64,000 nt of DNA, taken from positions 199,889-263,888 of the forward strand of contig LBYD01000002.1 of assembly GCA_000995965.1 (NCBI GenBank), in the 5' to 3' direction. Position numbers and translations under genes: made by a program. This document shows positions 2,670 through 53,744 of this stretch, one piece after another; the first letter of the stretch is position 1; every line of letters starts with the position of its first letter. Below the pieces are notes generated by a model, which saw only the letters and a list, made by a program, of their open reading frames with translations, searched no databases and was not told the DNA's origin. This DNA is from Candidatus Moranbacteria bacterium GW2011_GWC2_40_12 (GTDB lineage: Bacteria; Patescibacteriota; Minisyncoccia; Moranbacterales; UBA11712).

Positions 2670-3289
2670 GCATCAAGTATAACTTTTTTGGCTCGGCGAT
2701 CCAAGCGGATACTGATTGTCCCGGTTAATCAATAATTTTTAGCGTGGAACAAGGCAACAAAAAAACCGCCTATCAAAAGCCGATCTCTTCGCTACCCGTA
2801 TTTTCTAAATTGGTCAATCCGGCGGGCTCAAGCGCCCGCAAAAAATTATTTCAAGGCGGAGCCCGCCGGCGTTAGACATGTAACAACATGCCATAAGTAT
2901 CATTAGCCCGGGTGAAAGGCATTGTGATAACATTTTCAGCATGTAGTTTGACTACATGTCGTCTGTTATCATCAACTTTCCTACGGTTTTATAAGGAACC
3001 TATATTTTTATATTTATTTTATTCAACCCCGCACCGTTTTTCCGCAATGATTTTTTTGAGCAGGATATTTGCGAAGAAATGGCGCGGGGCAAGAATTTTT
3101 ATTTTTGTTTTTTACCCCTTCCGCGTTGGGAAGAAGAAATAGGAAAGCCAATGAGTTCCAATCGCAAATAGGGGGAAATTGCGATTGGAACTCATTGGCC
3201 AAGAAATATTGTGTTTTCAAGCTACATATACAGTATAGCAGATTTTTCGGAAAAGGTCAAATATATAATTTAAAATGAAAAAATCAAAA

Positions 3290-3400
3290 GTCAAAATGAC
3301 AGTGCAAAATGTAAAATTAGTTGAAAGCCAAAATGATTTTAATATTTGCCCAGTTTAAACTTTACATTGTCATTTCTCATTTTGATTTTTGAACTTTGCA
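3290..3400. repeat. ~110-130-bp AT-rich palindromic intergenic repeat (family with core aaaatgacagt.caaaatgtaaaatt ... tttgccca ... ttttacattgtcattt)
   Basis: Related copies at 25632-25765 and 53745-53875, and a half copy at 22925-22990. Confidence 0.6.
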
Positions 3401-3406
3401 TTCCTG

Positions 3407-7980: not shown

Positions 7981-8060
7981 CCGGTAGTATAATAGTTTAC
8001 TTTCGGGTTTAGTCGTCTATCTGACAGAAACAAGCCAGTTAATCATTATACTACCGGGTA
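7981..8060 (+). promoter_or_regulatory. 14-bp perfect inverted repeat (ccggtagtataatag ... cattatactaccgg) spanning the putative -10 and the pcrA start codon
   Basis: Left arm contains tataat; right arm abuts the pcrA ATG; upstream ttgaca at ~7918. Confidence 0.4.
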
Positions 8061-10207
8061 TGGAAATAATCAAGGGCCTCAACGAACAGCAAAGGGAAGC
8101 GGTGCTCTCGACGGAAGGGCCGGTTTTGGTCGTGGCGGGTGCGGGAAGCGGAAAAACGCGGCTGCTTGTCCACCGAATCGCCTATCTGATCAAGGAGAAA
8201 AAAGTCAGTCCGCGTCAAATACTCGCGGTTACTTTCACGAACAAAGCGGCCGAAGAAATGAAAGAACGGATAAAGAAATTGCTGGTCGGCGATTTCCGTT
8301 TTCAGCCCTGGATGGGAACTTTTCATCATATTTGCGTGCGGATTTTGAGGTCCGAAATCGACAAAATCGGATATAAAAAAAATTTTGTGATTTATGACGA
8401 CTCGGACCAGCGGGCGCTGGTGAAGAAAATAATGAAAGAAAACGAGATCAGCGCCGAGCAATTCAATCCCCGGGCGATGCTGGCGGTGATTTCGAAAGCC
8501 AAAGGAGAGCTTATGAAAGTCGAGGACTACATTTCCGGCGAGAGCTACTTTGAAAGGATTGTCGCTCGGGTTTATGGCGCTTACCAAAAAAATCTTCTCG
8601 AGAACAACGCCCTTGATTTTGACGATATTTTGCAAAAAACAGTCGAACTCTTTCAAAAATTCCCTGATATTCTTGAAAAATACCAGAATGTTTTCCGCTA
8701 TATTCTGGTTGACGAATACCAGGACACAAACCAGGCCCAGTATGTTTTGGTGAATCTTTTAGCCCAGCGCCACCGCAATCTTTGCGTCGTGGGGGATGAT
8801 TGGCAGTCCATATACGCTTTCCGGGGAGCGGATGTGCGCAATATTCTTGATTTTGAAAAAGACTATCCGGAAGCAAAAGTCGTGAAACTGGAGCGGAATT
8901 ATCGCTCCACGCAGAAAATTCTTGATGCCGCCTACGGCGTCATTTCGAAAAATATCCGCCGCAAAGACAAGAAACTGTGGACGGATAACATCGAAGGGCA
9001 CGACGTGGTTTTGTACAAAGCCTCCGATGAGCAGGATGAGGCTGGTTTCATCATTCGCGAAATTCAAAGAATCGTTGAAGAAGAAGGTTTGAGTCTCGAT
9101 GATTTTGTGGTTCTATACCGTACCAATGCCCAGTCGCGGGCTATCGAGGAAGCTTTTCTCGAGTCGGCCGTTCCGTATCGAGTGGTTGGCGGCGTGCGTT
9201 TTTATGAGCGGCGGGAGATCAAAGACTTTTTGGCGTATTTGCGGTTTATAAGCAATCCTACTGACGAAATCAGCCTTGGAAGAATCGTCAATCTTCCGCC
9301 GCGGGGGATTGGGAATATTACGCTGGGGAAGTGGATAAGATTCACTCGGGAAAACAATCTTGATTTTGTGGCTTCAGCAAAAAAAACGGGTGACATTTGC
9401 GGTCTCAATGGGGCGAAAATGGACGCAATTGCAAAATTCGGAGCACAAATTGAGCGGCTGAGGAGTGAAGCCGGACGCGCAACGATCATTGATCTTATGG
9501 ATTCGATTCTGACAGAAACGGGATATCAAAAATTGCTGCTCTCTGAGGGTGAAGTGGGGCAAATCCGGTTTGAAAACGTCCGGGAACTGTTCACGGTGGC
9601 GGAAAAATACAAAAAAGAGGAAGGCCTTGAGGGACTCAATATGTTTTTGGAGGAAGTGGCGCTGATGGCCTCGACGGATAATATTGATTCAAAATCAGGC
9701 CTGGTGCATCTGATGACGCTTCACAGCGCAAAGGGACTCGAATTCAACACGGTTTTTATTGCTGGCATGGAAGAGGGCTTGTTTCCGCACTCAAGAGCGC
9801 TTCTCGATGAAAGAGAGCTCGAAGAGGAAAGAAGGCTCGCTTATGTCGGCATCACGAGGGCCAAAAAAAGAATTTATCTTCTTTGGGCGACAACGAGGAA
9901 CATTTTCGGGTCAACAAGGGTGAATGTCGCCTCGCGTTTTTTGGATGATATCCCAGCTGAGCTAAAGGCCGACTTTGAGGAATTTCGCGCTTTCCCAAAA
10001 GTGCGAAAGGGAAAAGCCGGACTTTTTGAAGAAAAAAAGGAAAAAAGCTTAGCTTTGGAAAAATTCAAAGACGGAGAAAGAGTCAGGCACTCTATATTCG
10101 GAGAAGGCATTGTGATTTCCACAAAGGATGACATTGTCACAGTCGCTTTCATGAAAGAGGGACTCAAAAAAATTTCTGCCAAGTTCGGGAAATTGAAGAA
10201 AATATAA
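8060..10207 (+). CDS. pcrA: ATP-dependent DNA helicase PcrA/UvrD (SF1)
   Basis: 715 aa; GAGSGKT Walker A, DEYQDTN, VGDDWQSIYAFRGA and other UvrD motifs. Confidence 0.95.
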   Translation: MEIIKGLNEQQREAVLSTEGPVLVVAGAGSGKTRLLVHRIAYLIKEKKVSPRQILAVTFTNKAAEEMKERIKKLLVGDFRFQPWMGTFHHICVRILRSEIDKIGYKKNFVIYDDSDQRALVKKIMKENEISAEQFNPRAMLAVISKAKGELMKVEDYISGESYFERIVARVYGAYQKNLLENNALDFDDILQKTVELFQKFPDILEKYQNVFRYILVDEYQDTNQAQYVLVNLLAQRHRNLCVVGDDWQSIYAFRGADVRNILDFEKDYPEAKVVKLERNYRSTQKILDAAYGVISKNIRRKDKKLWTDNIEGHDVVLYKASDEQDEAGFIIREIQRIVEEEGLSLDDFVVLYRTNAQSRAIEEAFLESAVPYRVVGGVRFYERREIKDFLAYLRFISNPTDEISLGRIVNLPPRGIGNITLGKWIRFTRENNLDFVASAKKTGDICGLNGAKMDAIAKFGAQIERLRSEAGRATIIDLMDSILTETGYQKLLLSEGEVGQIRFENVRELFTVAEKYKKEEGLEGLNMFLEEVALMASTDNIDSKSGLVHLMTLHSAKGLEFNTVFIAGMEEGLFPHSRALLDERELEEERRLAYVGITRAKKRIYLLWATTRNIFGSTRVNVASRFLDDIPAELKADFEEFRAFPKVRKGKAGLFEEKKEKSLALEKFKDGERVRHSIFGEGIVISTKDDIVTVAFMKEGLKKISAKFGKLKKI

Positions 10208-10453: not shown

Positions 10454-11227
10454 ATGGAAAGCCTGGTAAGAATTCCGCAGTCTGAGCTTAACGCAACACT
10501 GGAAAGGCTTAGCAAACTTGGTGTCACGCAAGAGCATTTCAAGCGTGTCCGCTCAAGCAGAAAATATGCTAAAGCCGTGGCGTCGGCATTTCTCGGCGAT
10601 GATGGTGTGGTGATGAGTTATAATGATGTTCGCACCATTCTCGGTCAGGATTTCATCACGCCCGAGGAAATCGCCATTGCTCGCAAGCTCACCTATGGCG
10701 ACGATGTGCTTCAGTATTTCACTGAAACGCTTCCGTCCGAGGAAGTGTTGCAGTGGCTCCGTGACAACGGCTTCGTGCTGATTGCGGGACCGCCCAGTCC
10801 GATGTCGCTCTTGGAAGTCCGCGACCTCAACGCCCAGCTCCTTTACACCAAGTCTGGCGGTTGGTATGCGGAAGCGAAGCAGAAATTCTCACGGGACGAT
10901 AAGGTGGTTTCTGAATGGCTTATGCTCCGCAAGGGCGTCGTGCCCAAATCCACGAGCAAAACGTGGGACGAACAGCAGAAGCTTCTTTCCGAGGCGGAAT
11001 GCGTTCCCAACGCTCCCGAAACGACGTGGGGCGAAACCACTTACAAGGAAGTCCGTAATGCGTGGCTGTTTCCCAGCATCTACGCCAGAACTTCTTCCGT
11101 GGACTCAGACGACAATCGCGTCTGCGTCGGCGATTCGGCGGGTGGCGGTGTCTACGTCGGCAGCGGCTGGGGCGACGACCGCCACGACGGCCTTGGTCTG
11201 GCGTCCGCTCAGAAACGAAACTCGTAA
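10454..11227 (+). CDS. DGR target protein (variable protein) with C-terminal variable region
   Basis: 257-aa ORF with a good RBS (aaaggaggt); the last ~40 codons (11095-11215) are a near-copy of the downstream TR with adenine-specific differences; GC (~52%) is higher than the surrounding genome; no signal peptide seen. Confidence 0.8.
   Translation: MESLVRIPQSELNATLERLSKLGVTQEHFKRVRSSRKYAKAVASAFLGDDGVVMSYNDVRTILGQDFITPEEIAIARKLTYGDDVLQYFTETLPSEEVLQWLRDNGFVLIAGPPSPMSLLEVRDLNAQLLYTKSGGWYAEAKQKFSRDDKVVSEWLMLRKGVVPKSTSKTWDEQQKLLSEAECVPNAPETTWGETTYKEVRNAWLFPSIYARTSSVDSDDNRVCVGDSAGGGVYVGSGWGDDRHDGLGLASAQKRNS
11095..11215 (+). other. DGR variable region (VR) inside the target gene
   Basis: 121-bp alignment to TR 11587-11707; 15 mismatches fall at TR adenines (to G, T or C), 1 T-to-G, 1 terminal G/A; the 3' 20 bp ccttggtctggcgtccgctc are identical (IMH-like). 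Confidence 0.85.
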
Positions 11228-11586
11228 CCTTGAAATCTTGTTCCTTTTGTATTCTTGAGCCTTCGGCGATTTTTTTTCTCGCTGGAGGCTCTTTTCTTTT
11301 GTCAAAAACACTGATAAGATAAAATCAATCTTGCTAATGCAAGTTAGGTTACGGCTTAACTTCGCGAGATGTCTTTTCTTTAGACCTTACCAGAATATCG
11401 TCGGCTACGGCTTGCGATAGCGTGCGAGCAAAGATGAGAGTTAATTTCTTGTTTGCTCTTAGTGGAGGTGTTCTGATTTTGTCATCGGAACTGCTCTCGA
11501 ATAAAATACAGGAAAGAGAGAATATAGTCCGCTTTTAGCGGAAGTAAATCTCAATTTCCAGTGGCTTTCAGACGGGAACAAACAAA

Positions 11587-11707
11587 TTCCGTGGACTCAG
11601 ACGACAATCACGTCAACGTCGGCAATTCGGCGAGTGGCGGTGTCAACGTCAACAACAACTGGGACGACAACCGCAACGACTACCTTGGTCTGGCGTCCGC
11701 TCGGAAA
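11587..11707 (+). other. DGR template region (TR), non-coding template repeat
   Basis: Direct repeat of VR, rich in AAC codons in the VR frame (NHVNVGNSASGGVNVNNNWDDNRND); lies between the target gene and avd, upstream of the RT. Confidence 0.85.
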
Positions 11708-11723
11708 TTATCTCAAGTCGAAA

Positions 11724-11756
11724 GTAAACGCTCTCCTTTTTTGGGAGAGCGTTTAC
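11724..11756. terminator. perfect hairpin (gtaaacgctctcc-tttttt-ggagagcgtttac) immediately 3' of avd on the minus strand and 3' of TR on the plus strand
   Basis: 13-bp stem with a 6-nt T/A loop, read directly from the sequence. Confidence 0.6.
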
Positions 11757-11757
11757 T

Positions 11758-12108
11758 TTAGCAGTCCTTTACGGATTTTATCCAGCCGCCGAGCATTCTT
11801 CCTATTTCATCCGTTTTTTCCTGAAGCAGGACATACTTTTTGCTGTCAATCGCTTTCACTTCTTTGGCAAGGCGGACAAAAATTCTGAAAAGGTTCAACT
11901 TCAAGCTGGCTTTTTCAAGGACTGGCAATTTTTCCACTTTGGACATTTGGCTGGCCAGCAGGATACTTTCCAGTGTTTCCAGCAAAATGTTTTCGCATTT
12001 CTGCCAGAGCGTATAGCGGTCTTGTTTGGGGACTGAATTTCTGAAGCTATAAAAGTTCCGATACAACTCGTAGATTTTTTTAAAGATCGGTATGTCAAAT
12101 TCTTCCAT
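11758..12108 (-). CDS. avd: Avd-like accessory variability determinant (four-helix-bundle protein)
   Basis: 117 aa from MEEFDIPIFKKIYELYRNFYSF...; basic helical protein of the 23S-rRNA-intervening-sequence/four-helix-bundle family that includes DGR Avd; adjacent to the DGR RT. Confidence 0.7.
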   Translation of the reverse strand: MEEFDIPIFKKIYELYRNFYSFRNSVPKQDRYTLWQKCENILLETLESILLASQMSKVEKLPVLEKASLKLNLFRIFVRLAKEVKAIDSKKYVLLQEKTDEIGRMLGGWIKSVKDC

Positions 12109-12120
12109 AGGTTTATTGTT

Positions 12121-13170
12121 ATGAAGATTTATAAAGATGTTTTTGAGAAAATAATTTCGCCTGAAAATCTTTTTTCGGCTTGGGACAATTTCAAAGTCGG
12201 AAAGATAAAAAAGAAAGATGTCCAGGCGTTTGAATCGAAGCTGGAACAAAACATTTTCCAGCTTCATCGGGAATTGAGGGGACGCTCGTATAGGCACGGC
12301 AGTTATGCCTCATTTTATATACGTGATCCGAAACAAAGACATATTCACAAAGCCGAAGTCAGAGACAGAATTTTGCATCATGCCGTTTTTTCTATCCTCA
12401 ACCCCATTTTTGAGGCAACCTTTATTTCCCATTCTTTTTCTTGCCGAATTGGAAAGGGAACGCATAAAGGCGTTATCGCTTTGGAAAAAATGATAAGAAA
12501 AGAGACGCAAAATTATTCCAGACGTTGCTTTATTTTGAAGTGCGACGTGAGGAAGTTTTTTGATACGGTTGACCACGGAATTTTGATGAGGATTTTGAAA
12601 AAGCGGATTAAGGACGAAAATGCACTCTGTCTGTTAAGAGAAATTATTAGCAGTTTTTCCTCCGAGCATTCGGACATTTTCACAGTCCGAGGTTTGCCGA
12701 TTGGCAATCTCACCTCCCAGCTTTTTGCCAATATCTTCCTCAACGAGCTTGACCAGTTTGTCAAAAACAAAATGCGTTTGAAATTCTATGCTCGCTATAC
12801 CGATGATTTCGTCATTGTCGGGAAAGACGAAAGAGAATTGAAAAATATGCTTTCGGAAATACGCTCATTCTTGAAAGATAGATTGTCCCTGGAACTCCAC
12901 CCGAAAAAAATCGTGATTAGAAAATATAGCCAAGGAATTGATTATCTTGGCTATATCGTTTTGCCTCACTATCAGCTACTCCGAACAAAAACGAAAAAGC
13001 GAGTGTTCAAAAAGTTGAAAATGCGGATTGGGCAATACAGGGCGGGGGAAATTAGCGAAAAATCTTTGAACCAATCCCTGCAATCCTATCTCGGCGTTTT
13101 TTCCCACGCCGACACGCACGAATTGGAGCAGGAACTTCTTAATCAATTTTGGTTTTGGTTGAATGAATAA
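12121..13170 (+). CDS. diversity-generating retroelement reverse transcriptase
   Basis: 349 aa; RT motifs including KCDVRKFFDTVDH and YARYTDDFVIVG (YxDD); DGR-hallmark motif LPIGNLTSQ ([I/L]GxxxSQ) replaces the group II intron QGxxxSP. Confidence 0.85.
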   Translation: MKIYKDVFEKIISPENLFSAWDNFKVGKIKKKDVQAFESKLEQNIFQLHRELRGRSYRHGSYASFYIRDPKQRHIHKAEVRDRILHHAVFSILNPIFEATFISHSFSCRIGKGTHKGVIALEKMIRKETQNYSRRCFILKCDVRKFFDTVDHGILMRILKKRIKDENALCLLREIISSFSSEHSDIFTVRGLPIGNLTSQLFANIFLNELDQFVKNKMRLKFYARYTDDFVIVGKDERELKNMLSEIRSFLKDRLSLELHPKKIVIRKYSQGIDYLGYIVLPHYQLLRTKTKKRVFKKLKMRIGQYRAGEISEKSLNQSLQSYLGVFSHADTHELEQELLNQFWFWLNE

Positions 13171-14775: not shown

Positions 14776-15696
14776 ATGAATTTGAGCCAGCTTAAAAATC
14801 AATATCTAGAGCATCTTGAAATTGAGAAGGATCGCTCGCAAAAAACAATCGAAAATTATGACCATTATCTTGAGCGTTTTTTGAAATGGGCAAAAATAAG
14901 TTCGGCAAGTGATATTACAGATGAATTGGTTCGCCGATATCGTCTCCAGCTCAACCGCTTTGCGGATGAGAAAGGTTCGTCACTCAAAAAAATTACTCAA
15001 AACTATCATGTTATCGCCCTTCGCAATTTTTTGAAGTATCTCGCGAGACATGACGTAAAGACTTTGCCGGCGGAAAAGGTGGAGCTTGGAAAAACAAGCG
15101 AGAGACAGATTGATTTTTTGGAAATGGAGGAAGTGGAGCGGATTTTTGAAGCGGCCGGCGGTTTAGATCAGAAATCTTTGAGGGACAGGGCCATACTTGA
15201 ATTGCTTTTTAGCTCCGGACTTCGAGTCTCAGAGCTTGTCGGCCTGAATCGCGATCAGGTGAACCTCAAAACGGGAGAATTCAGCGTTCGGGGGAAAGGA
15301 AGCAAAGTGAGGGTGGTGTTTGTGTCCGACCGAGCGAAAGCGACGCTTCAAAGATACATGGAAAAAAGACTCGATATTGATCCGGCGCTGTTTGTGAGAG
15401 TTGGAATAAAGCATCTTGAAAAAAAGAGCAAGGCCGACAATCTGCGGATTACTCCGCGGACGGTTCAGCGCATTGTGAAACACTGCGCGCTGAAAGCCGG
15501 GATCGTGAAAGACGTCCATCCGCATACTCTTCGCCACTCATTTGCCACTGATCTCATCCAAAACGGCGCCGATATCCGCTCGGTGCAGGAAATGCTCGGG
15601 CACTCCTCCGTCACCACGACGCAAATATATACGCACGTCACTAATAAGCAATTAAAAGAAGTTCATAAAGCTTTCCATGGGAAAAGACGCAAATAG
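14776..15696 (+). CDS. tyrosine site-specific recombinase (XerC/XerD family)
   Basis: 306 aa; N-terminal SAM-like core-binding domain; catalytic R...HTLRHSFATDL...GHSSVTTTQIYTHV with Tyr nucleophile. Confidence 0.9.
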   Translation: MNLSQLKNQYLEHLEIEKDRSQKTIENYDHYLERFLKWAKISSASDITDELVRRYRLQLNRFADEKGSSLKKITQNYHVIALRNFLKYLARHDVKTLPAEKVELGKTSERQIDFLEMEEVERIFEAAGGLDQKSLRDRAILELLFSSGLRVSELVGLNRDQVNLKTGEFSVRGKGSKVRVVFVSDRAKATLQRYMEKRLDIDPALFVRVGIKHLEKKSKADNLRITPRTVQRIVKHCALKAGIVKDVHPHTLRHSFATDLIQNGADIRSVQEMLGHSSVTTTQIYTHVTNKQLKEVHKAFHGKRRK

Positions 15697-15707
15697 TTTG
15701 TCTTTTC

Positions 15708-15775
15708 CAAAGCTCGGCTTTTCCCTTCCCCGACTAAACGCCCGGGAATTCCTCAAAGCCAAGCTTATAAGAAGT
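15708..15775. repeat. ~65-bp MITE-like element with 13-bp terminal inverted repeats (aaagctcggcttt ... aaagccaagctt), intergenic copy
   Basis: Termini match the copy at 52399-52466 inside the cca gene; the internal sequence differs. Confidence 0.55.
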
Positions 15776-15947
15776 CCGCAAAGCGTTTCACGAAAAAAGG
15801 CGGAAATAACCGAGAGCTTAGATCTTGGGTGAAGAACCCCGTGGCGGCGGGTATTTTTTCTTTTTCTCAATGAAACATCAAATTTCAAGGGAGTCAAATA
15901 TATTCACGTGGATTTAATTGACTACCTTGAAGAATAGCCAAGATAAA

Positions 15948-15990
15948 AAAGAGAACCCGGGAGGTCAAACCGCCCCGGGTTCTTTTGATA
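15948..15990 (-). terminator. rho-independent terminator of the purD-like gene
   Basis: gaacccggg-N13-cccgggttc hairpin followed by a T-run on the minus strand, just 3' of the stop at 16013. Confidence 0.6.
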
Positions 15991-16012
15991 ATGCTGAAAA
16001 TGAAAGTTTCCC

Positions 16013-17530
16013 CTACTTCGTTTTCAGTGCTTCGGCTTTGCTGAAGTGTGCCCCGATGTCCCTCCGGCAATCGAGGCGGTTGCCGGCGTCGTCTTCCCGG
16101 GGGATCACCCGGATTTTGCCGTTGTCGAAGGCCGCGAGCAGTCGCTGGCGCAGAATCTCGGCTGTCTGGCCCCGGGTTTGTCCGGACTTGACTGTGGTAT
16201 TGGCCAGAAGATAGGCCACGCGGGAGCCGTCGGATTTGAAGACGCCGTCTTCGTAGTCCATGGCGGACGGGATGACGGTGATCTTCTTCTTGTCGAAATA
16301 ATCGAAGTCGATCTCCATGACCTCGCCTTTGGTGAGCGACCAGGGGTAGCCTTTTTGCTGTTTAGGACCGCCTGGACCGGTAACCAGGGCAAAGCAAATC
16401 GAAATCTGATCCGTCCGTATTTCGGGCTCCACCTTGTGCAAGTTGCCCTGAACCGCAGCCTTAAGCAGAGCGCCCAAGTTCCGTATCCTCTTCACGACCG
16501 GCTGGAATTCCGGCTCGCCCGGGCGAACGTTGATCTCGCAGACCCGGATCGCTTTCGGCTTTCCGTCAGGCAGGAAAGATACGAAACATCCGGGGTATAT
16601 AACACATGGACGAAGGACATTCTTCAGCCACATAGCCTGGGTAAGAGGATAGATAATAGATTCGTCGACAAGTTTTAAAAGTTCTGGGGATTCCCAGGGA
16701 TGCGGGGAGATGGCACCCATTCCTCCGGTAATCGGGTTCCAAATTCCAGAGGGGCCGGGGAACCTTTCCGGGTAGTCCATCGCCGTGGGAAGAATTTGAT
16801 AATGCGCGTGTTCGTCGGCTAGAACTGTGAAGCTGATTTCAACTCCAGACATTCTGGCTTCGATAAGAAGCGGCCAAGGAGCCTTTTCACCGCAGACATT
16901 GGTGTAAGAATCCTTGAAGTCCTTGATCAGGAGGTCGTAGGTATCCCTGATGCCCCAGCTGTCGAGGATGACGCGGGATCCCTTGCCGCCGGCGCTGTAA
17001 GGATATTTCAGAACGGCGCCGCCATGTTCATGCAAATAGTCCAGACAGATACCGGCCACTGCCCGGAAATCACGGGCATCAACCTCGGCCGCGGGGGCGA
17101 CGGGAATATTTGCTTCGCGGCAAAAGCGTTTACATGCGATCTTATCGCCCTCAAGGGTGTTAGCGCCCACCTTTCCAAGACCTATGATGCGGTTGCCGAA
17201 ACCGGCTTCCGTCACCAGATCCACCAAGCCGTTGAAGAGCAGACCTTCGGGTCCGACCATTGCTATGTCCAATTGCCCGTTTCCGAAGGCTTCGATCAGG
17301 GCAGCAGCGTAATCTGCTGCTGAATTGCTCCTGGTTGGGATAAAGTCAATTGGCCATTGGTGGTTTGGCAGCCGTGCCCAAGGCTCCATCGCTGGGGTTC
17401 CCCGCACGACGACACCCCGATAGTTTCCGGGATGGAGTTCACTTTTAGCTCGGCTTGTTTCCAGCGCGGCCTCGAGCATTCTCCCGTCTGTTCCCGAAAA
17501 TGCAATTTTGCAAGGTTCTGATTCTGGCAT
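16013..17530 (-). CDS. phosphoribosylamine--glycine ligase (PurD/GARS)-like ATP-grasp protein, compositionally foreign
   Basis: 505 aa; GARS N-domain, ATP-grasp and C-domain order; ITGGMGAISP resembles the PurD GGMGAYSP motif; GC ~58-63% against ~40% in the neighbours. Confidence 0.7.
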   Translation of the reverse strand: MPESEPCKIAFSGTDGRMLEAALETSRAKSELHPGNYRGVVVRGTPAMEPWARLPNHQWPIDFIPTRSNSAADYAAALIEAFGNGQLDIAMVGPEGLLFNGLVDLVTEAGFGNRIIGLGKVGANTLEGDKIACKRFCREANIPVAPAAEVDARDFRAVAGICLDYLHEHGGAVLKYPYSAGGKGSRVILDSWGIRDTYDLLIKDFKDSYTNVCGEKAPWPLLIEARMSGVEISFTVLADEHAHYQILPTAMDYPERFPGPSGIWNPITGGMGAISPHPWESPELLKLVDESIIYPLTQAMWLKNVLRPCVIYPGCFVSFLPDGKPKAIRVCEINVRPGEPEFQPVVKRIRNLGALLKAAVQGNLHKVEPEIRTDQISICFALVTGPGGPKQQKGYPWSLTKGEVMEIDFDYFDKKKITVIPSAMDYEDGVFKSDGSRVAYLLANTTVKSGQTRGQTAEILRQRLLAAFDNGKIRVIPREDDAGNRLDCRRDIGAHFSKAEALKTK

Positions 17531-17692
17531 AAGCTTCTCCTTTAAGCTTTATTTTCTTTGATTTCAGCCTATCTTAGGAAGAGGAGTGATGTCAATAATT
17601 ATTCAACTGTTGCCGAAACAAAAAAGCGCTCAAATTTATCCAAGCGGATAGAGTTGAGCGCTATGCTTCAATGTCGCAAAAAGTCCATATTT

Positions 17693-25631: not shown

Positions 25632-25765
25632 TAAACGCAAAGTGCAAAAATCAAAATGCAAAATGACAGTTCAAAATGTAAAATTATCAGATATCAAAAT
25701 AGATTTCGATGTTTGCCCATTTTTAATTTTACATTGTAATTTTGAGCTTTGATTTTTAAATTTTG
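25632..25765. repeat. second copy of the AAAATG/CATTTT palindromic intergenic repeat family
   Basis: gcaaaatgacagttcaaaatgtaaaatta...tttgcccattttta attttacattgtaatttt; lies between a hypothetical gene and gyrA. Confidence 0.6.
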
Positions 25766-25775
25766 AATTATTATC

Positions 25776-28362: not shown

Positions 28363-29838
28363 ATGAAAAAGAAAAACAAAAAATATCTTGAAAATAAAAT
28401 TATAATTCTTTTTTTTGCTGTGTTTATTGCGCTGACGCTTTCCGGATGCGGCGCTCCGAAGGAAACTAGCTATAAAGTTGACCTTGAAATTTGGGGGCTT
28501 TTTGACGATTCGGATGCGTTTTCAAAAGCAATCCAAGAATACAAAAAAAGAAACAGCAGGGTAGGCGCGATTACCTATAAAAAAATGCCGGTTGATTCCT
28601 ATGAAAATGACCTTCGGGACGCTTTGGCGATCGGGAAAGGGCCGGATATCTTTCTTATCCATCACACCTGGCTGGCAAAGCATCTCGACAAACTTGAGCC
28701 TGCGCCACTGGAAATGGGAACCGGCAATGGCGAAAAGGCTGTCTTCATCACGCCAAGAAAAGTCCAGGAATATTTTGCGGATGTTGTCCAGAAAGATTTC
28801 GTGAACGGCTCAAATGTTTATGCGCTGCCCCTCTCGGTCGATTCTTTGGCTCTTTATTATAATAAAGATATTCTCAATCAGGCGGGGATTTCACGTCCTC
28901 CAAAAACGTGGGAAGAATTTGACAGTGATGTCCAGAAAATCACCAAGATTGACTCATTTGGGAACATCATTCTTGCCGGAGCGGCGATGGGAGTCTCCAG
29001 CGACCGTCCCGAAAATCTCGGCGGCGGAAAAATCAACCGGGCTACCGACATCTTGACGCTTCTTATGATGCAGGCAGGAACCGAAATGTTTGATTCCGAG
29101 AGAAAAATGGCCAAGTTTTCCGAATTCTCTTCTTCTGATACCGGAAAAGACAAATTTCCCGGACAAATGGCGCTTGAATACTACACGAAATTTTCAAATC
29201 TCAATTCAAGCCAATATACTTGGAATGCGCAAATGCATAATTCGATTGATGCTTTCGTAGAAGGAAAGACAGCTATGACAATCAACTATTCTTGGCTTAT
29301 TCCGCGAATCCAAGACAAAGCTCCGAAGCTCAATTTTGGCATTGCCCCAGTTCCTCAAAATAAGGATCAAAACAATAAAGGAATCAACGCTAACTTTGCC
29401 AATTATTGGGGCTTGGCAGTTTCAAAAAGCAAGATTATGGCAACTGACGAGGGGCAACCAGCCACGGCGACAAATGAACAGAGGATCACCGAAGCCTGGA
29501 GGTTTCTTGCTTATCTCACGATGGGTTCTGAAGAAATTTCTCCTTTTATCGGAGCAGCATCCAGTGAAGTGGCTGGATACAATCCAGCGGAGGAATATGC
29601 CGAAAAACAAAGAAAGCCCGCAGCGCGGCGGGACCTTATTGAAAAGCAGAAAGAAGATTTGCTTCTCTCGCCTTTTGCCCAAGGGAACCTCATTGCCCGT
29701 TCCTGGCCGGAACCGGACAATCTGGCGGTGGAGAAAATATTTGATGAGATGATTGACGATGTGGTTCTCCGGAATGAAAAATCAGGTGAAGTCATCCGCC
29801 AAGCCCAAAATAGCGTCAATCTGCTGATAAAGAGATAA
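28363..29838 (+). CDS. ABC-transporter-type extracellular solute-binding lipoprotein (family 1, sugar-type); no permease or ATPase adjacent
   Basis: Start chosen at MKKKNKKYLENKIIILFFAVFIALTLSGCG (lipobox LSGC); SBP_bac_1-like sequence; stop overlaps the start of the next gene (taATGtcc). Confidence 0.7.
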   Translation: MKKKNKKYLENKIIILFFAVFIALTLSGCGAPKETSYKVDLEIWGLFDDSDAFSKAIQEYKKRNSRVGAITYKKMPVDSYENDLRDALAIGKGPDIFLIHHTWLAKHLDKLEPAPLEMGTGNGEKAVFITPRKVQEYFADVVQKDFVNGSNVYALPLSVDSLALYYNKDILNQAGISRPPKTWEEFDSDVQKITKIDSFGNIILAGAAMGVSSDRPENLGGGKINRATDILTLLMMQAGTEMFDSERKMAKFSEFSSSDTGKDKFPGQMALEYYTKFSNLNSSQYTWNAQMHNSIDAFVEGKTAMTINYSWLIPRIQDKAPKLNFGIAPVPQNKDQNNKGINANFANYWGLAVSKSKIMATDEGQPATATNEQRITEAWRFLAYLTMGSEEISPFIGAASSEVAGYNPAEEYAEKQRKPAARRDLIEKQKEDLLLSPFAQGNLIARSWPEPDNLAVEKIFDEMIDDVVLRNEKSGEVIRQAQNSVNLLIKR

Positions 29839-30518
29839 TGTCCCAAGTTACAAAAATTATAAAGGAAAATAAAATTTTGATGAAAACGATATATTTTACA
29901 GGAAAGAAATATATTATCGGATTATTTTTGATTGTCTTGTTTATCCTTAGTGCAAAAATATCTGAAGCGGCTTATTTAACAAACGCTCAGTGTGCTGCAC
30001 AGGGAGGAAGATGTAATTGGGTTTCAAATATTTGCTCATCTGACGAGACACTGGTGGGTCTCTGTGAAGGAGGAGCTTTTTCACAGGGAGCCTGTTGTAA
30101 ACCAAACACAACCCCATCACCTACCCCATCACCTACCCCATCACCTACCCCATCACCTACCCCATCACCTACCCCATCACCTACCCCAATATCAACAGCA
30201 GATACTAGCGGATCACTTGTCCCCTGCACCAATAATTGCACACTTTGCGACATTATCGTCGGCCTCAACAGAATTTTCAAATATCTGGGCACTCTTTTGG
30301 TCATTGTTGCGATTCTTTTCATCATAATTGCCGGAATTGCCTATATGGTTTCGGGCGGAAGCAAGAATTTGACTGAATGGGCGAAAAAAGCGCTGATGTA
30401 CGCTCTGGTCGGTTTTGTAATATATCTCGCTTCCTGGATGATTGTTGGTTCGATTCTTTCAGCTATGGGATACAACAGAACTGGCTGGTCGACATTTGAT
30501 TGCGAAAGCGGATCTTAG
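29838..30518 (+). CDS. secreted protein: signal peptide, Cys-rich domain, (PTPS)n linker, T4SS-pilin-like (TrbC/VirB2-type, PF18895-like) two-TM domain
   Basis: 226 aa; CAAQGGRCNWVSNICSSDETLVGLCEGGAFSQGACC, then PSPTPSPTPS..., then LVPCTNNCTLCDIIVGLNRIFKYLG plus two TM helices; an alternative start is MKTIYF at 29880. Confidence 0.7.
   Translation: MSQVTKIIKENKILMKTIYFTGKKYIIGLFLIVLFILSAKISEAAYLTNAQCAAQGGRCNWVSNICSSDETLVGLCEGGAFSQGACCKPNTTPSPTPSPTPSPTPSPTPSPTPSPTPISTADTSGSLVPCTNNCTLCDIIVGLNRIFKYLGTLLVIVAILFIIIAGIAYMVSGGSKNLTEWAKKALMYALVGFVIYLASWMIVGSILSAMGYNRTGWSTFDCESGS
30111..30190 (+). repeat. 12-bp tandem repeat (cccatcacctac x ~6) encoding the PSPT linker
   Basis: Direct perfect tandem copies within a CDS; a degenerate copy lies at 30976-31020 in the next gene. 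Confidence 0.8.
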
Positions 30519-30535: not shown

Positions 30536-31621
30536 ATGAAAAAGTCATATTTTCAACCCGTTATCGTTTTCACGATTGTTCTTTTGACAATAATATTTTT
30601 TTTGCAAATCGCAATTTTATCCCCGGCCGTGCTTGCCGATGACGACAGCACCGGAGGACTGGTTCCCTGCAACAACAAATGCACCCTTTGCCATATTCTG
30701 ATCGGTCTTCAAAACATATTCAAATATCTCATTGGCCTGCTTTTTGTCGCTACGATGTTTTTTGTCACCTTAAATGGCGCGCTGATGATGGTTTCAGCCG
30801 GAAGCAAGAAGATTATCGGCCAGGTAAAAACCGCTCTTGGCTACTGCCTGAAAGGTTTCCTCCTTTTTCTTATCTGCTGGGTTATTGTCACGGGTATCAT
30901 GAAAACACTGGGCTACAGGCAACTCAACAATTGGTGGCAGTTTGAATGTGACACGACTCAAGCAGAACCACCGGTATCACCTACCCCATCACCAACCCCG
31001 TCACCGACCCCAACTCCTACAAATAAATCATGCAAAGACATTGGCGGTATCTGTCGAATTTGGCATCCTTCGATGGAGGGGCAATCGAAGTGCGAGGAAG
31101 GAGAGCAGCCCCGAGAAGATTACAAGTGCCCAAATTCGGGAGAAATTTGCTGTATCACAAAGGCAATCTGGAATTGTGCCGACGCTGCGGCCGCGGCTCG
31201 AGAAGTAATTAATAATTATATGAAACTAGTAAACAGTGGCCAGCAATATGGTGCTAAGTTACCAGGCGATATAATAAAGGAAACTGCAAACTGTGGTTCA
31301 TCGTGCAATTGGTCTTGGCAGTCTGCCGGTCTGCCGGATTTCTGGAGTCTGAAACGGAGTGAATGGGACGGAAACCCAAATTCTTTGCAGCCGGGCGACA
31401 TTTGCTTACTAGTTTCGAATGATCCTAACGCACAAGGTGACGCTAAATATCCGCATGCGTTTATGATTTTGGATCAAAATGGCATGACAACTATGGCAAG
31501 CCCTAAAATCAATATCACATATAGTAAGGATGGGTTAAACTATAATATTAATCGACTAAAACCAGAAAATTTACATATTGAAGTAGTTCGTATTTCAGAC
31601 GTGGTTTGCAAGAACAAATAG
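30536..31621 (+). CDS. secreted fusion protein: T4SS-pilin-like domain, PT linker, Cys-rich domain, C-terminal putative papain-like (CHAP/NlpC-P60-like) cysteine peptidase domain
   Basis: Start chosen at MKKSYFQPVIVFTIVLL; LVPCNNKCTLCHILIGLQNIFKYL pilin core; CKDIGGICRIW...CEEGEQPREDYKCPNSGEICC; C-terminal domain with candidate catalytic Cys (ANCGSSCNWSW) and His (PHAFMIL). Confidence 0.6.
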   Translation: MKKSYFQPVIVFTIVLLTIIFFLQIAILSPAVLADDDSTGGLVPCNNKCTLCHILIGLQNIFKYLIGLLFVATMFFVTLNGALMMVSAGSKKIIGQVKTALGYCLKGFLLFLICWVIVTGIMKTLGYRQLNNWWQFECDTTQAEPPVSPTPSPTPSPTPTPTNKSCKDIGGICRIWHPSMEGQSKCEEGEQPREDYKCPNSGEICCITKAIWNCADAAAAAREVINNYMKLVNSGQQYGAKLPGDIIKETANCGSSCNWSWQSAGLPDFWSLKRSEWDGNPNSLQPGDICLLVSNDPNAQGDAKYPHAFMILDQNGMTTMASPKINITYSKDGLNYNINRLKPENLHIEVVRISDVVCKNK

Positions 31622-32400: not shown

Positions 32401-32985
32401 ATGAAAAAAATCATACTCCCCCTCGTTATTCTCTTGGCAATATTTTTTCTTCAAGCCAGGCCGGCATTTGCCGCCTCCATTGATTTCACAAACCCTTTGA
32501 CTGCCACCGATCTCAAGACCGTTTTGACGAATATCATGACATACCTCAGAAACATTGCCGGATCAATCGCCCTCCTTTTTATCGTTATCGGCGGGATTAT
32601 GTATATTGTCTCAACCGGCGACAAGGATAGAATGGAGCGCGCGAAAAACACTCTCATTTACGCCCTTGCCGGGTTTGCCATCGTATTAGCCGCATCTACT
32701 TTCACCTCCGAAATTCAGACGGCTCTCGGAGAGAGCGTGACATCCACCGGCGGACCCACTCTAGCGCAGATTATCCTCAATGTTTTGAGACTCCTTTTGT
32801 CAATCGTGGGATCTCTTGCTATAATAAGCATAGTGATCGGCGCCATTTGGATGTTCTCCGCCGGGGGAGATAAAGAAAGGTATGAGCTCGGGAAAAAAAC
32901 TGTGATCTATTCAATAGTCGGCGTGACGGTCGTTTTGATTTCCGTAATCGTCCTCAACCAAATCAAGACATTGATTGGCGGATAA
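32401..32985 (+). CDS. tandem-duplicated T4SS-pilin-like (PF18895-like) protein, two pilin modules
   Basis: 194 aa; signal peptide; two repeats of the pattern [amphipathic helix]-TM-SxGD/GGDKER-AK.T.IY-TM. Confidence 0.7.
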   Translation: MKKIILPLVILLAIFFLQARPAFAASIDFTNPLTATDLKTVLTNIMTYLRNIAGSIALLFIVIGGIMYIVSTGDKDRMERAKNTLIYALAGFAIVLAASTFTSEIQTALGESVTSTGGPTLAQIILNVLRLLLSIVGSLAIISIVIGAIWMFSAGGDKERYELGKKTVIYSIVGVTVVLISVIVLNQIKTLIGG

Positions 32986-33532: not shown

Positions 33533-33931
33533 ATGAAAAAGACAATATGTTGCTATCTCACAACGACTAGAAATAAAAAGAAAATATTTATCGAAATATT
33601 TTTTGCTGTTTTCTTTTTAGTTATTTTTCTTCCAGGAGCGATTTTTGCTCAAGGTGTGCCCATTCCATCCGAGAGCCTGCCCGCGGGCAGTGATTTGAAA
33701 ACGGTGGTTGAGAATTTCATGAAGTGGCTTCTTGGCATCTTTGGTTTTTTGGCAATTATCGCTTTTATCGTAAGTGGAATAATGTATCTTACTTCTGGCG
33801 GTGACAAGGAGAGAGCGGAAACAGCTAAAAAAGCCATGAATTATTCCGTCATAGGGGTAATTGCAGGTTTATCGGGATATCTGATTATCCAAGCCATTGA
33901 AAGCTGGCTCGGTGGTTCTACTACTTTTTAG
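33533..33931 (+). CDS. T4SS-pilin-like (PF18895-like) protein
   Basis: 132 aa; signal peptide; MKWLLGIFGFLAIIAFIVSGIMYLTSGGDKERAETAKKAMNYSVIGVIAGLSGY. Confidence 0.7.
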   Translation: MKKTICCYLTTTRNKKKIFIEIFFAVFFLVIFLPGAIFAQGVPIPSESLPAGSDLKTVVENFMKWLLGIFGFLAIIAFIVSGIMYLTSGGDKERAETAKKAMNYSVIGVIAGLSGYLIIQAIESWLGGSTTF

Positions 33932-35775: not shown

Positions 35776-35849
35776 GGGCGCGTAGCTCAGTTGGTTAGAG
35801 CATCTGTCTTACAAACAGAGGGTCAGAGGTTCGAGTCCTCTCGCGCCCA
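35776..35849 (+). tRNA. tRNA-Val (anticodon TAC)
   Basis: acceptor gggcgcg/cgcgccc, anticodon arm tctgt-ctTACaa-acaga, T-arm agagg-ttcgagt-cctct. Confidence 0.85.
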
Positions 35850-35858
35850 CGAGTATAT

Positions 35859-35946: not shown

Positions 35947-36314
35947 GCCGGGCTAGCTCAGTGGTAGAGCAGAAGACTGATTTTCGGTCCATTCCGCAGC
36001 GATGCGGAAAAGAAAAATCGGGTGAATTCGAGGAAACCTAATCTCCGACGTTATGTTGGAGCAGGGCAATCTCGAGCCAATCCTTCGCCGGGAGGCTACG
36101 GATTGCAAGCAAGCTAATTTTAGAAGGCTTGCCTGCCGTAGCTTTAGCGGAGGCAGGTGTAGAGACTAGCAGGTGAGTTCCAACAATAATCCTGCGCCAG
36201 CGCCCGACCGCTCCCTTCGCGAAGGGAGGGGATGAAATAGTCCGATCCTTGGGGAAACTCAAGCAAACGACGAGGAAAATCTTTGTGTGCCCAGTTCGAT
36301 TCTGGGGCCCGGCA
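35947..36314 (+). tRNA. tRNA-Phe (anticodon GAA) interrupted by a group I intron between positions 33 and 34
   Basis: Exon 1 is 35947-35978 (acceptor gccgggc, D-arm tagctcagtggtagagca ~ E. coli tRNA-Phe, anticodon stem gaaga, ct). Exon 2 is 36275-36314 (gaaaa-tcttt, variable gtgtg, T-arm cccag-ttcgatt-ctggg, acceptor gcccggc, a). The spliced loop is ctGAAaa. Confidence 0.75.
35979..36274 (+). ncRNA. group I self-splicing intron (~296 nt, no ORF) in the tRNA-Phe anticodon loop
   Basis: P1 with U.G at the 5' splice site (exon gacu / intron gguc); P7 halves gAGACUAg (36163-36169) and auAGUCC (36237-36243); terminal G before exon 2. Confidence 0.7.
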
Positions 36315-50360: not shown

Positions 50361-50560
50361 GGAAAGATTTCGAAAGTGCTCAAATTTATCCATATGGATA
50401 TAAATGAGCACTTTTTTTATTTTGTAATAATGGATGCACCAGTATACCAGTTTACTGGTGTGAGGATTCGCGGGCCATTGTTTCAGGTTGTGATTTTCCA
50501 AAAAGAAAAACCCCAACCGCCGCGAGGGCAAGTTGGGGATAATTTAGGGCATTCAACCCT

Positions 50561-52164: not shown

Positions 52165-53736
52165 ATGGTCAAGAAAATTCCGAAACCCATAATCGAAATT
52201 ATCCAAAAACTCGAAGCCGCTGGTTTTGAGGCTTTTGTCGTGGGCGGGTGCGTTCGGGACTTGCTGATGGGCGTTGAGCCCAAGGATTGGGACGTGACGA
52301 CAAACGCAAAGCCGGAGGAAGTATCAAAATTATTTCCGGATAGTTTTTATGAGAACAAGTTTGGGACGGTAGGTGTAAAGATTCCGAAGCTTACGAATCA
52401 AAGCTCGGCTTTACCCTCGCGAGAGCGGAGCTCTCGCGATTCCTCAAAGCCAAGCTTTTCAGAAGTTGTTGAAGTGACAACCTATCGAATCGAAAGCAAG
52501 TATTTGGACAAGCGGCATCCGGATGAGGTGCGGTTCGCGAAGACGCTCGAAGAGGATTTATCGAGGCGGGATTTTACGATCAATGCGCTGGCACTTAAAA
52601 TCGTTAATTCTGATTTTGAAATAGTGGATCTCTTCGATGGCCAGAAAGATCAGAAGAAAAATATAATTCGGGCAGTGGGAAATGCGAACGAGCGTTTTGA
52701 TGAGGATGCGCTTCGAATGATGCGGGCAATTCGTTTTGCGACAACACTCACAAATGAAAGCGAAGTAAAGCGAAGCAGAGCGAATAGTGGCCCAAGAAAA
52801 TTAGCAAAGAAAACACCATTTGAGATTGAAGAAAAAACGAAAAAAGCAATTGCAAAGAATGCGAAAAACTTGAAACATATCGCTCTCGAAAGAATCCAGG
52901 ATGAGCTGAACAAAATCATGCTGTCTGATTTTGCGGCGGAAGGAATTGAACTTTTGCGCGAACTAAAATTATTGCAATATATCATTTCCGAGCTTGAGAA
53001 AGGCTATGGCGTCGGCCAAAACCGGCACCATATCTATACCATCTGGGAGCACTCGATTTTGTCCCTCAAAAATTGCCCGTCGGAAAAGTTGGAAGTTAGA
53101 TTAGCAACCCTTTTACATGACATTGCGAAGCCCGATACGAAAAGAGGCGAAGGCGCTTATTCGACATTCTATAATCACGACCATGTCGGAGCGCGGGTGG
53201 TCGAAAAAATTTTGAAACGCTTGAAATATTCTTCGGACATAATCAAAAAAGTTCGATTGCTTGTCGATAATCATATGTTCTACTACAACGTTGAGGAAGT
53301 GGGGGCTTCGAGTGTGCGGCGCCTCGTGAAAAAAGTGGGACTTGAAAACATCGATGACCTCATTGATCTTCGCGTGGGTGACCGGCTGGGAAGCGGCGTG
53401 CCCAAAGCCGTGCCGTACAAGCTCCGCCATTTCAAATATATGGTCGACAAGATTTCAAGCGACCCGCTCTCGGTCAAAATGCTGAAAGTCAACGGCAACG
53501 ATTTGATGCGTGAATTGAAACTCAAACCAGGCCCGATGCTCGGAGCGATTTTAGACGTGCTTCTTTCGGAAGTTATAGAAAATCCAGAGGAAAACAAAAA
53601 AGATATATTGCTGAACCGAGCGAAAGAACTCGCAAAAGAAAACTTGACGAAACTTCGTGAGATGGCGAAGGAGAAAATTGAAGAGAAAAAAGAAGAAGAA
53701 GACAAAGAGATTAAGAGCAAGTATTGGGTCAAGTGA
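52165..53736 (+). CDS. cca: CCA-adding enzyme (tRNA nucleotidyltransferase head domain plus HD domain) carrying an in-frame ~22-aa low-complexity insertion
   Basis: GGCVRDLLMG...DWDV NTase motif; HD motif (LLHDIAKP); the insertion NQSSALPSRERSSRDSSKPSFSE is encoded by the MITE-like element at 52399-52466. Confidence 0.85.
   Translation: MVKKIPKPIIEIIQKLEAAGFEAFVVGGCVRDLLMGVEPKDWDVTTNAKPEEVSKLFPDSFYENKFGTVGVKIPKLTNQSSALPSRERSSRDSSKPSFSEVVEVTTYRIESKYLDKRHPDEVRFAKTLEEDLSRRDFTINALALKIVNSDFEIVDLFDGQKDQKKNIIRAVGNANERFDEDALRMMRAIRFATTLTNESEVKRSRANSGPRKLAKKTPFEIEEKTKKAIAKNAKNLKHIALERIQDELNKIMLSDFAAEGIELLRELKLLQYIISELEKGYGVGQNRHHIYTIWEHSILSLKNCPSEKLEVRLATLLHDIAKPDTKRGEGAYSTFYNHDHVGARVVEKILKRLKYSSDIIKKVRLLVDNHMFYYNVEEVGASSVRRLVKKVGLENIDDLIDLRVGDRLGSGVPKAVPYKLRHFKYMVDKISSDPLSVKMLKVNGNDLMRELKLKPGPMLGAILDVLLSEVIENPEENKKDILLNRAKELAKENLTKLREMAKEKIEEKKEEEDKEIKSKYWVK
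52399..52466. repeat. ~65-bp MITE-like element with 13-bp TIRs and an internal perfect hairpin (cgcgagagc-gga-gctctcgcg), inserted in-frame in cca
   Basis: Termini aaagctcggcttt / aaagccaagcttt shared with the intergenic copy at 15708-15775. Confidence 0.55.
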
Positions 53737-53744
53737 ATGCAAAT

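Follow-up and report, generated by a model that had tools for sequence, protein, structure and literature searches.

Palindromic repeats that stand in frame within protein-coding genes are exemplified by the Rickettsia palindromic elements (RPEs), which were reportedly described by Ogata and colleagues in Science in 2000 and in Genome Research in 2002. The REP/REPIN elements are said to be mobilised by RAYT (Y1 HUH) transposases, in work attributed to Nunvar in 2010 and to Bertels and Rainey in 2011. RPEs occur in frame in housekeeping genes at sites compatible with the fold of the encoded protein, and a 2024 review of the miniature transposable elements with inverted repeats (MITEs) of prokaryotes merely speculated about such an in-frame process outside Rickettsia (PMC10969869). 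In-frame protein-coding palindromes were essentially a Rickettsia curiosity until now, and full-text literature searches found no description of such elements for the candidate phyla radiation (CPR)/Patescibacteria. Here, a 64,000-nt stretch of Candidatus Moranbacteria bacterium GW2011_GWC2_40_12 (contig LBYD01000002.1, positions 199,889 to 263,888; hereafter the window) was analyzed, which contains three copies of a short hairpin element, one of them in frame within cca, the gene of the CCA-adding enzyme. The element probably represents a family of small non-coding palindromic hairpin elements, RPE-like or REPIN-like, which are selfish, dispersed in the Moranbacteria/Parcubacteria, and tolerated in frame.

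By analogy, RPEs are the functionally closest and REPINs the architecturally closest of the known systems. Like RPEs, the Moranbacteria element is a small palindrome without coding capacity of its own, about half of its copies stand in frame within housekeeping genes that are unrelated to each other, at sites that the protein fold can accommodate, no transposase is known for it, and it resides in reduced genomes of host-dependent bacteria. It differs from RPEs in its host (CPR Moranbacteria), in its sequence, which is unrelated as far as can be told from a comparison with RPEs by description, and in its length (59–85 bp versus approximately 100–150 bp). RPEs have been described with a conserved encoded peptide, whereas five frames of the Moranbacteria element are read, three in sense and two in antisense; also prominent in Moranbacteria are nesting, subfamily swaps in place, and repeated occupation of one and the same loop by several families. 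Because all copies found lie in CPR-type metagenome-assembled genomes (MAGs), the element is an analogue of the RPEs and not a member. With REPINs it shares an inverted pair of short imperfect palindromes that forms one long hairpin, conserved ends and a compensated middle, long persistence within a clade, and the lack of a target-site duplication. REP/REPIN elements are known as strictly extragenic, however, whereas 47% of the Moranbacteria copies are intragenic. The Moranbacteria element also lacks the GT[AG]G head, and the window did not yield a RAYT gene.

The cca copy (copy 1; Table 1) reads caaagctcggcttt, followed by a 33-nt interior and aaagccaagctt. An earlier note on this DNA had reported this insert at 52399–52466 with the same letters and arms, but with an interior of 35 nt; its further statements that the interior is a perfect hairpin (cgcgagagc-gga-gctctcgcg) and that the copy is translated in the cca frame as NQSSALPSRERSSRDSSKPSFSE were both confirmed in the sequence. 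The note had also pointed to a second copy with the same termini and a different interior. Indeed, 15708–15775 (within copy 2) can be aligned with copy 1 without gaps and at equal length, the left CAAAGCTCGGCTTTnCCCT and the right ATTCCTCAAAGCCAAGCTTnTnAGAAGT being common to both, and the differing interior is again a hairpin. For the 19-nt right end, 0.05 occurrences in the window would be expected and two are present, so the likeness of the two copies is not due to chance. The arms of both copies are complementary at 12 of 13 positions, and folding of both is far below that of shuffled controls (z-scores −2.6 to −5.5). Their reverse strands fold even better (−38.8 and −32.8 kcal/mol), since a C·A mismatch turns into a G·U pair. 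A third copy, overlooked previously, lies antisense inside the helicase gene pcrA, has the subfamily arms AAAGTCCGGCTTT / AAAGTCGGCCTTT, and reads in frame as ..LKADFEEFRAFPKVRKGKAGLF.. in the PcrA linker that precedes the C-terminal domain. The covariance model used to score these copies was trained on 36 copies, including copies 1 and 2 but not copy 3. A solo arm with terminal extension, AAAGCTTAGCTTTGGAAAAAT, adjoins copy 3 and is probably what remains of another, or a nested, copy in the pcrA linker. GC skew is positive over the entire window, and strand bias relative to replication is uninformative with three copies.

Comparison of the encoded CCA-adding enzyme with 120 homologs revealed that many of these, at 80–85% identity, read FGTVGVK-SEVG-VVEVTTYR, the window protein having a stretch of 28 residues where they have the four-residue turn SEVG. 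Solved CCA enzymes lack the segment as well: residues 60–99 of the query correspond to residues 98–114 of 6IBP, which leaves approximately 23 extra residues, and the alignment breaks exactly there. The suggestion that the loop is lineage-specific thus held, and its position in the enzyme could be modelled. The AlphaFold model has a mean predicted local distance difference test (pLDDT) score of 80 and matches the folds of 1MIV, 6QY6, and 4X4W (template modelling score ~0.7 on the target), whereas residues 79–97, which span the gap between the strands 69–74 and 98–106, have pLDDT values below 50. In this model, the insert is predicted to extend the tip of a β-hairpin of the catalytic head domain by a disordered loop of about 24 residues. 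The functionally important flexible loop of CCA enzymes is located between motifs A and B (PMC2910056). Judged from the sequence, the insert would lie between motif A and this flexible loop, upstream of the EVTTYR strand, and would thus be distinct from the critical flexible loop. Encoded CCA is absent from 10 of the 11 tRNA genes in the window, so that cca is needed, and the gene can fairly be regarded as essential. The window PcrA is 100% identical to a protein of Candidatus Moranbacteria GW2011_GWC1_45_18, and the CCA enzyme likewise matches Candidatus Moranbacteria.

Copies outside the window were searched for with the 18-mer TTCCTCAAAGCCAAGCTT in one genome per species, which matched at least 113 stretches; in about 50 of those listed, the left arm was also present at the correct spacing. 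Among the matches listed, all two-arm copies belonged to MAGs labelled Moranbacteria, Parcubacteria, or Patescibacteria, to one labelled just “bacterium”, or to two evidently mislabelled bins with CPR-type genes, and the other matches were single-arm chance occurrences in unrelated taxa. The mislabelled bins are DATGZC01 (L005, L037, L044) and CAZFIH01 (L050, L091), which carry the element under the labels “Candidatus Bathyarchaeia archaeon SMAG_U10653” and “uncultured Bdellovibrionales bacterium”. They contain a Mur ligase, LigA, and MiaA of the Moranbacteria type and a CCA enzyme 81% identical to that of the window, and their taxonomic labels are probably wrong. The MAG MFSH01 has at least nine exact right-arm copies and several more genomes have at least three to seven. 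With three copies in the window and at least about 50 in other Moranbacteria/Parcubacteria genomes, the search for further copies bounded by the same inverted repeats bore out that the element is a dispersed repeat. Phage carriage was considered and rejected, as five matches in IMG/VR were chance 18-mers without the left arm.

The general anatomy of the element is (ATTTTTCC)-AAAGCTCGGCTTT-TCCC-[10-bp stem with 3-nt loop, free sequence]-TTCCTC-AAAGCCAAGCTTT-(GGAAAAAT), with a modal length of 59 nt from arm to arm and of about 77–85 nt with the terminal extensions. In many copies, the 13-nt arms reach a length of about 20 nt (ATTTTCC[TC]AAAGC..), and in every subfamily each of them forms a 5-3-5 mini-palindrome by itself. 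What sets the subfamilies apart are compensating changes in the two arms, as in AAGGTTCGGCCTT/AAGGCCAAACCTT, AAAGTCCGACTTT/AAAGTCGGACTTT, and AGAGCCCGGCTCT/AGAGCCAGGCTCT. Across 36 ungapped copies, 88% of the cells are paired and 17 of the 23 pairs show double-sided changes; none of 500 shuffles reached the observed values, and only 19–55% were paired when the partner was slid. The inner 10-bp stem varies in sequence while its pairing is retained, and the C·A mismatch in the middle of the outer stem is kept in 34 of the 36 copies; the same covariation would also be expected if the inverted repeats were recognised as double-stranded DNA. The arms pair with each other better than each with itself. 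A cloverleaf with self-hairpin arms was rejected, because the central triplets and the AAGG subfamily favour pairing from arm to arm. No match at the gathering score was found in Rfam 15, which gave merely chance-level matches at E ≤ 10 around copies 1 and 2.

Among the 49 copies retrieved by the 18-mer alone, 23 are intragenic and lie, all of them open in frame, within long Pfam-confirmed open reading frames (ORFs), where only copies open through a frame of at least 150 codons were counted as intragenic. Their hosts comprise genes for a Mur ligase, LigA (eight genomes, three sites), TsaD (two sites), MnmA, TatD, MiaB (two sites), MiaA, a P-type ATPase, and LepA, and one further host encodes a predicted membrane protein without Pfam match. 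Eighteen of these copies are in sense and five in antisense orientation. As read from the sequence, the conserved parts are free of stop codons in five of the six frames, and the actual readings use at least five combinations of frame and orientation, the sense readings being QSSAFP..NSSKPSF, KARLFP..IPQSQAL, and KLGFSL..FLKAKL and the antisense readings KLGFEE.. and SLALRN... Since the same DNA is read in several frames, it is the DNA and not the peptide that is propagated, and no particular peptide is selected. The intragenic copies sit at permissive surface loops or linkers, as shown for CCA by the structural model and for the variable PcrA linker by comparison of orthologs. Outside genes, copies are found in short spacers that follow the 3′ ends of genes, and for 15 of 28 the stop codon of a convergent gene is no more than 18 nt away. 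The commonest host was ligA, with 8 of the 23 intragenic copies (L032, L036, L038, L050, L065, L090, L095, L113). Its recurrent sites precede the adenylation domain, follow the FIYDID motif, or fall within the zinc finger CPICGG..AATYC; L032 has two nested ligA copies, each with a further unrelated hairpin inserted in it. In L045, a small gene at 2357–2893 upstream of an ATP synthase operon is bracketed by element copies, three of which lie within 820 nt, all antisense to the genes; by eye, this gene resembles the four-helix-bundle “23S rRNA intervening-sequence protein” family.

Two positions in cca turned out to be mosaic hotspots. Besides the site filled by copy 1 (site 1), a second site is empty in the window, and comparison of this allele with the filled allele of L001 revealed a difference of exactly 60 nt between N148 and S149. 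All four combinations of filled and empty sites exist among close relatives (protein distance 0.08–0.2). The occupants come from at least three hairpin families, among them the element family (in three frames), an A/T-rich family (KNQKSK..), and a “PHPSPLL..KERE” hairpin family. Where the two sites were occupied and their peptide motifs allowed typing, the family was the same at both in about 10 of 14 genomes. Within 554 kb of cca-centered loci, 14 of 15 strong model matches fall within cca. Unrelated hairpins were also observed in frame at site 1 of more distant relatives (L144/L145, L169, L123), where GAGCCCGCCTCG..CGAGGCGGGC reads EPASTRGD..RGGH and CCCTCTCCTTAGTAAGGAGAGGG reads PDPLLSKERE. 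The window itself contains A/T-rich intergenic repeats of about 131 nt (TTTTGAATTTTGAATTGTAATTT..) at 3272–3402, 25639–25769, and 53733–53863, the last of which begins at the cca stop codon; judged by eye, both cca sites and ligA of other Moranbacteria seem to be occupied by similar repeats of A/T-rich sequence in translated form (KNQKSKIKITNQNAK..).

The PcrA linker, from SRFLDDIP to FKDGxRVxH, has copies in many orthologs and in both orientations, with different subfamilies in sister lineages, and LigA has recurrent sites in the same manner. Nested composites (left, left, interior, right, right) account for 8 of about 44 intragenic versus none of 23 intergenic copies; they often lack part of the outer interior, and the frame stays open. 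In the spacer 3′ of xerC, the window and the sister genome L202 have orthologous copies with different subfamilies and interiors. New here are the two mosaic cca hotspots, the frequency of nesting and of subfamily swaps in place, and the finding that the element exceeds its host gene in conservation.

Table 1. Copies of the hairpin element in the window, their host genes, and related features.
Feature	Coordinates	Strand	Remarks
Element copy 1	52391–52467	+	inside cca, in frame, residues ~76–101; covariance model 87.5 bits, E 1e-23
Copy 1, left arm	52400–52412		
Copy 1, internal loop ACCC			
Copy 1, inner hairpin	52417–52439		
Copy 1, internal loop TTCCTC	52440–52445		
Copy 1, right arm	52446–52458		
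Element copy 2	15700–15776	+	starts 13 nt past the stop codon of the XerC/D-like recombinase gene; 75.2 bits, E 6.5e-20
Element copy 3	9955–10034	−	antisense inside pcrA; 53 bits, E 4e-13
Solo arm with terminal extension	10044–10064	+	adjoins copy 3; weak model match 10035–10065, E 0.045
cca site 2	52606–52611	+	empty in window, between 52608 and 52609; codons N148/S149; turn between strands 143–147 and 150–154
cca	52165–53736	+	class II CCA-adding enzyme with HD domain, 523 aa; Pfam PolyA_pol, PolyA_pol_RNAbd, HD, tRNA_NucTran2_2
pcrA	8060–10207	+	UvrD/PcrA helicase, 715 aa
XerC/D-like tyrosine recombinase gene	14776–15696	+	upstream of copy 2; neighbor only

If the element indeed belongs to a selfish family tolerated in frame, it would spread as DNA with the help of a trans-acting activity specific for hairpin or cruciform structures. 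New copies would preferentially land in, or replace, resident palindromic copies and would then be trimmed by deletion (“nest and prune”). Selection would remove insertions elsewhere in the gene and, together with this nesting and pruning, would lead to recurrent hotspots, and the insert would be translated and tolerated without being useful to the enzyme. Several observations weigh against this explanation. In orthologous copies, the arms and internal loops are identical at 33–35 of 36 positions (92–97%), as compared with 62–78% for the surrounding 600 nt of cca coding sequence, and whole orthologous elements reach up to 56 of 59 identical positions. Such identity is unexpected for neutral junk, because a passenger in a disordered loop should outpace the host gene in evolution; possible causes are concerted evolution, a real constraint on the nucleic acid, or the repeated insertion of conserved master copies into the same sites. 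The filled/empty pair at cca site 2 lacks a target-site duplication longer than 1 nt, although its proteins are orthologs of about 85% identity and not recent alleles, and consistent direct repeats are absent from 67 flank pairs. Pfam searches of 49 ORFs in the window found no transposase, HUH, or RAYT gene but only the XerC/D-like recombinase, a reverse transcriptase of the type found in diversity-generating retroelements, and a LAGLIDADG endonuclease; none was noticed in the fetched loci either, which were not screened systematically. An all-against-all megablast of CPR loci yielded no presence/absence polymorphism between near-identical genomes, so mobility is deduced from the distribution of the copies and not observed, and that the cca insert is translated is likewise something we infer.

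The term MITE-like, under which the element had been reported, is apt insofar as it is a multicopy element bounded by inverted repeats: it is small, lacks a transposase ORF, and has several dispersed copies per genome. With classical MITEs (Correia/NEMIS, ERIC, RUP, Coxiella QMITE; PMC10969869) it has in common that it is small, ends in terminal inverted repeats, is dispersed in many copies, and occasionally fuses in frame with host ORFs. In contrast to these, no target-site duplication was found for it, nor, in the window, a cognate insertion sequence with the same ends, and its interior is a freely varying hairpin kept as a structure instead of a conserved relic of an insertion sequence, so that it is not established as a MITE in the strict sense. 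The sequence AAGCTT, which the earlier note had seen on both sides of the cca copy, is literally there but does not qualify as a target duplication, as the right one belongs to the arm and the left one is missing from the orthologous L001 copy (AAAATT) and from the other copies.

Folded single-stranded substrates of tyrosine recombinases (attC, CTX-phage attP) resemble the element in their length of 57–141 nt, in inverted repeats that are imperfect and asymmetric in a conserved way (by a mismatch or by extrahelical bases), in a variable center conserved as a structure, and in that copies in the window and in L111 lie directly 3′ of tyrosine recombinase genes. The element differs from attC by its ends (AAAGCTCGGCTTT / AAAGCCAAGCTTT), which lack RYYYAAC / GTTRRRY boxes, and by solitary copies without cassette arrays or an intI-attI platform. 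The position of a copy after xerC had been noted correctly, but the association is not general: among eight further xerC orthologs tested, only L202 has a copy, so that two of nine orthologous 3′ spacers are occupied, and a general link to tyrosine recombinases was rejected.

A more specific proposal, which we hold only tentatively, is that the element is not decaying junk but serves a hairpin-specific system of CPR bacteria as its substrate; the system would resemble REPIN-RAYT or attC-IntI yet be allowed in genes. Such a system would home to resident palindromes, conserve arms and loops over order-level divergence, and rewrite a few surface loops of essential enzymes (CCA, LigA, PcrA, TsaD, and others), and minimal genomes would thereby possess a built-in generator of protein-loop variation. 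It is rather doubtful that spread and refreshment took place without any transposition, by template switching at stalled hairpins or gene conversion between palindromes, with each hotspot being one ancient insertion that was repeatedly overwritten. The in-place subfamily swaps at cca sites 1 and 2, in the PcrA linker, and in the xerC spacer would agree with such recombination, as would the nested and partly deleted composites, the missing target-site duplication at cca site 2, and the lack of a transposase in the window. However, the swaps also change the outermost arms, the loci have no common homology beyond the arms that could guide a conversion tract, and new sites in many unrelated genes require some mechanism of de novo insertion.

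Selection for a functional nucleic-acid module is an unlikely explanation, although the high conservation of arms and loops relative to the surrounding essential gene would fit it. The module could be a stabilising or terminator-like hairpin at mRNA 3′ ends, a site for an RNase or an RNA-binding protein, or a double-stranded or cruciform DNA site, the intragenic copies being functional themselves or by-products of spread. In favor of this idea, an order-level clade has kept the C·A mismatch and the sequences of the loops, the 5-3-5 palindromic arms resemble a site for a dimeric protein, and the convergent genes that end within 18 nt of 15 of the 28 intergenic copies would have, in their transcripts, the G·U version of the hairpin, which is more stable (−33 to −39 kcal/mol). 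No U-run follows the window copies, however, and a terminator role is not supported for them: copy 2 is situated in the spacer between convergent genes upstream of the recombinase gene's own terminator-like hairpin (15838–15851), which was called in a scan of 15500–16200 that did not call the element, and the right flanks of the copies are heterogeneous. Moreover, coding sequence holds nearly half of the copies, in several frames and in either orientation, their mosaic presence and absence among close relatives argues that no single position is required, and Rfam has no match.

Excision of the segment before the mature protein forms, as a hairpin-defined mini-intron or in an intein-like manner that would leave the enzyme without the loop, is highly improbable. 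The strong conserved hairpin of the transcript and the presence of a self-splicing element (a group I intron) elsewhere in the genome might be taken in its favor. Against this, the intragenic copies are open through a frame of at least 150 codons, by the rule under which they were called; the one clean filled/empty case differs by exactly 60 nt; nested composites are also in frame, a constraint that excision would not impose; and neither catalytic RNA or intein motifs nor an Rfam match was found. Next to no credence remains for the view that the loop is a native, fast-evolving low-complexity region of the Moranbacteria CCA enzyme and unrelated to the repeats. Loop length does vary over the family, and more distant relatives have a native loop of 12–18 residues, but a native origin is refuted by the presence of the same 59-nt module, with identical arms, in no fewer than ten other gene families and in intergenic DNA.

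The probably selfish, in-frame-tolerated family in Moranbacteria adds a second, unrelated lineage of reduced, host-dependent bacteria with in-frame palindromes, here hitting essential genes. It also offers a tractable system, with defined hotspots that have filled and empty alleles among close relatives, nested intermediates, and an element conserved beyond its host gene. It bears on the tolerance and recycling of selfish DNA in small genomes, on the origin of new protein loops, and on odd insertions in CPR proteins, and is a warning for annotation, as low-complexity inserts in CPR enzymes may be repeat DNA.

Several other features of the window were recorded. The region 10454–13170 is probably a diversity-generating retroelement with a candidate pair of variable and template repeats: an ORF without Pfam match (10454–11227) has a 121-nt repeat at its 3′ end (11095–11215), a second copy with 86% identity is located at 11587–11707, and an RVT_1 ORF follows at 12121–13170. 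L116 contains a reverse transcriptase 52% identical to that of the window. A group I intron match in Rfam (35969–36264; 57 bits, gathering score 50) is located about 120 nt past tRNA-Val (35776–35850) and before tRNA-Gly (36389). A LAGLIDADG homing-endonuclease-like ORF of 344 aa (56853–57887) directly follows tRNA-Ala (56754–56827), which alone among the tRNA genes of the window encodes its CCA. A palindromic motif of 40 nt, AAAGTGCTCAAATTTATCCATATGGATATAAATGAGCACT, occurs in intergenic DNA at 17623–17662 and 50373–50412 in copies of 80% identity, with the similar CACGTGGATTTAATTGACTAC near 15887–15926, and may be an operator or promoter motif. Finally, tandem 12-nt repeats (ATCACCTACCCC) were found at 30092–30223 and 30964–31047, beside T4SS-pilin-like genes at 29838–30518, 32401–32985, and 33533–33931.

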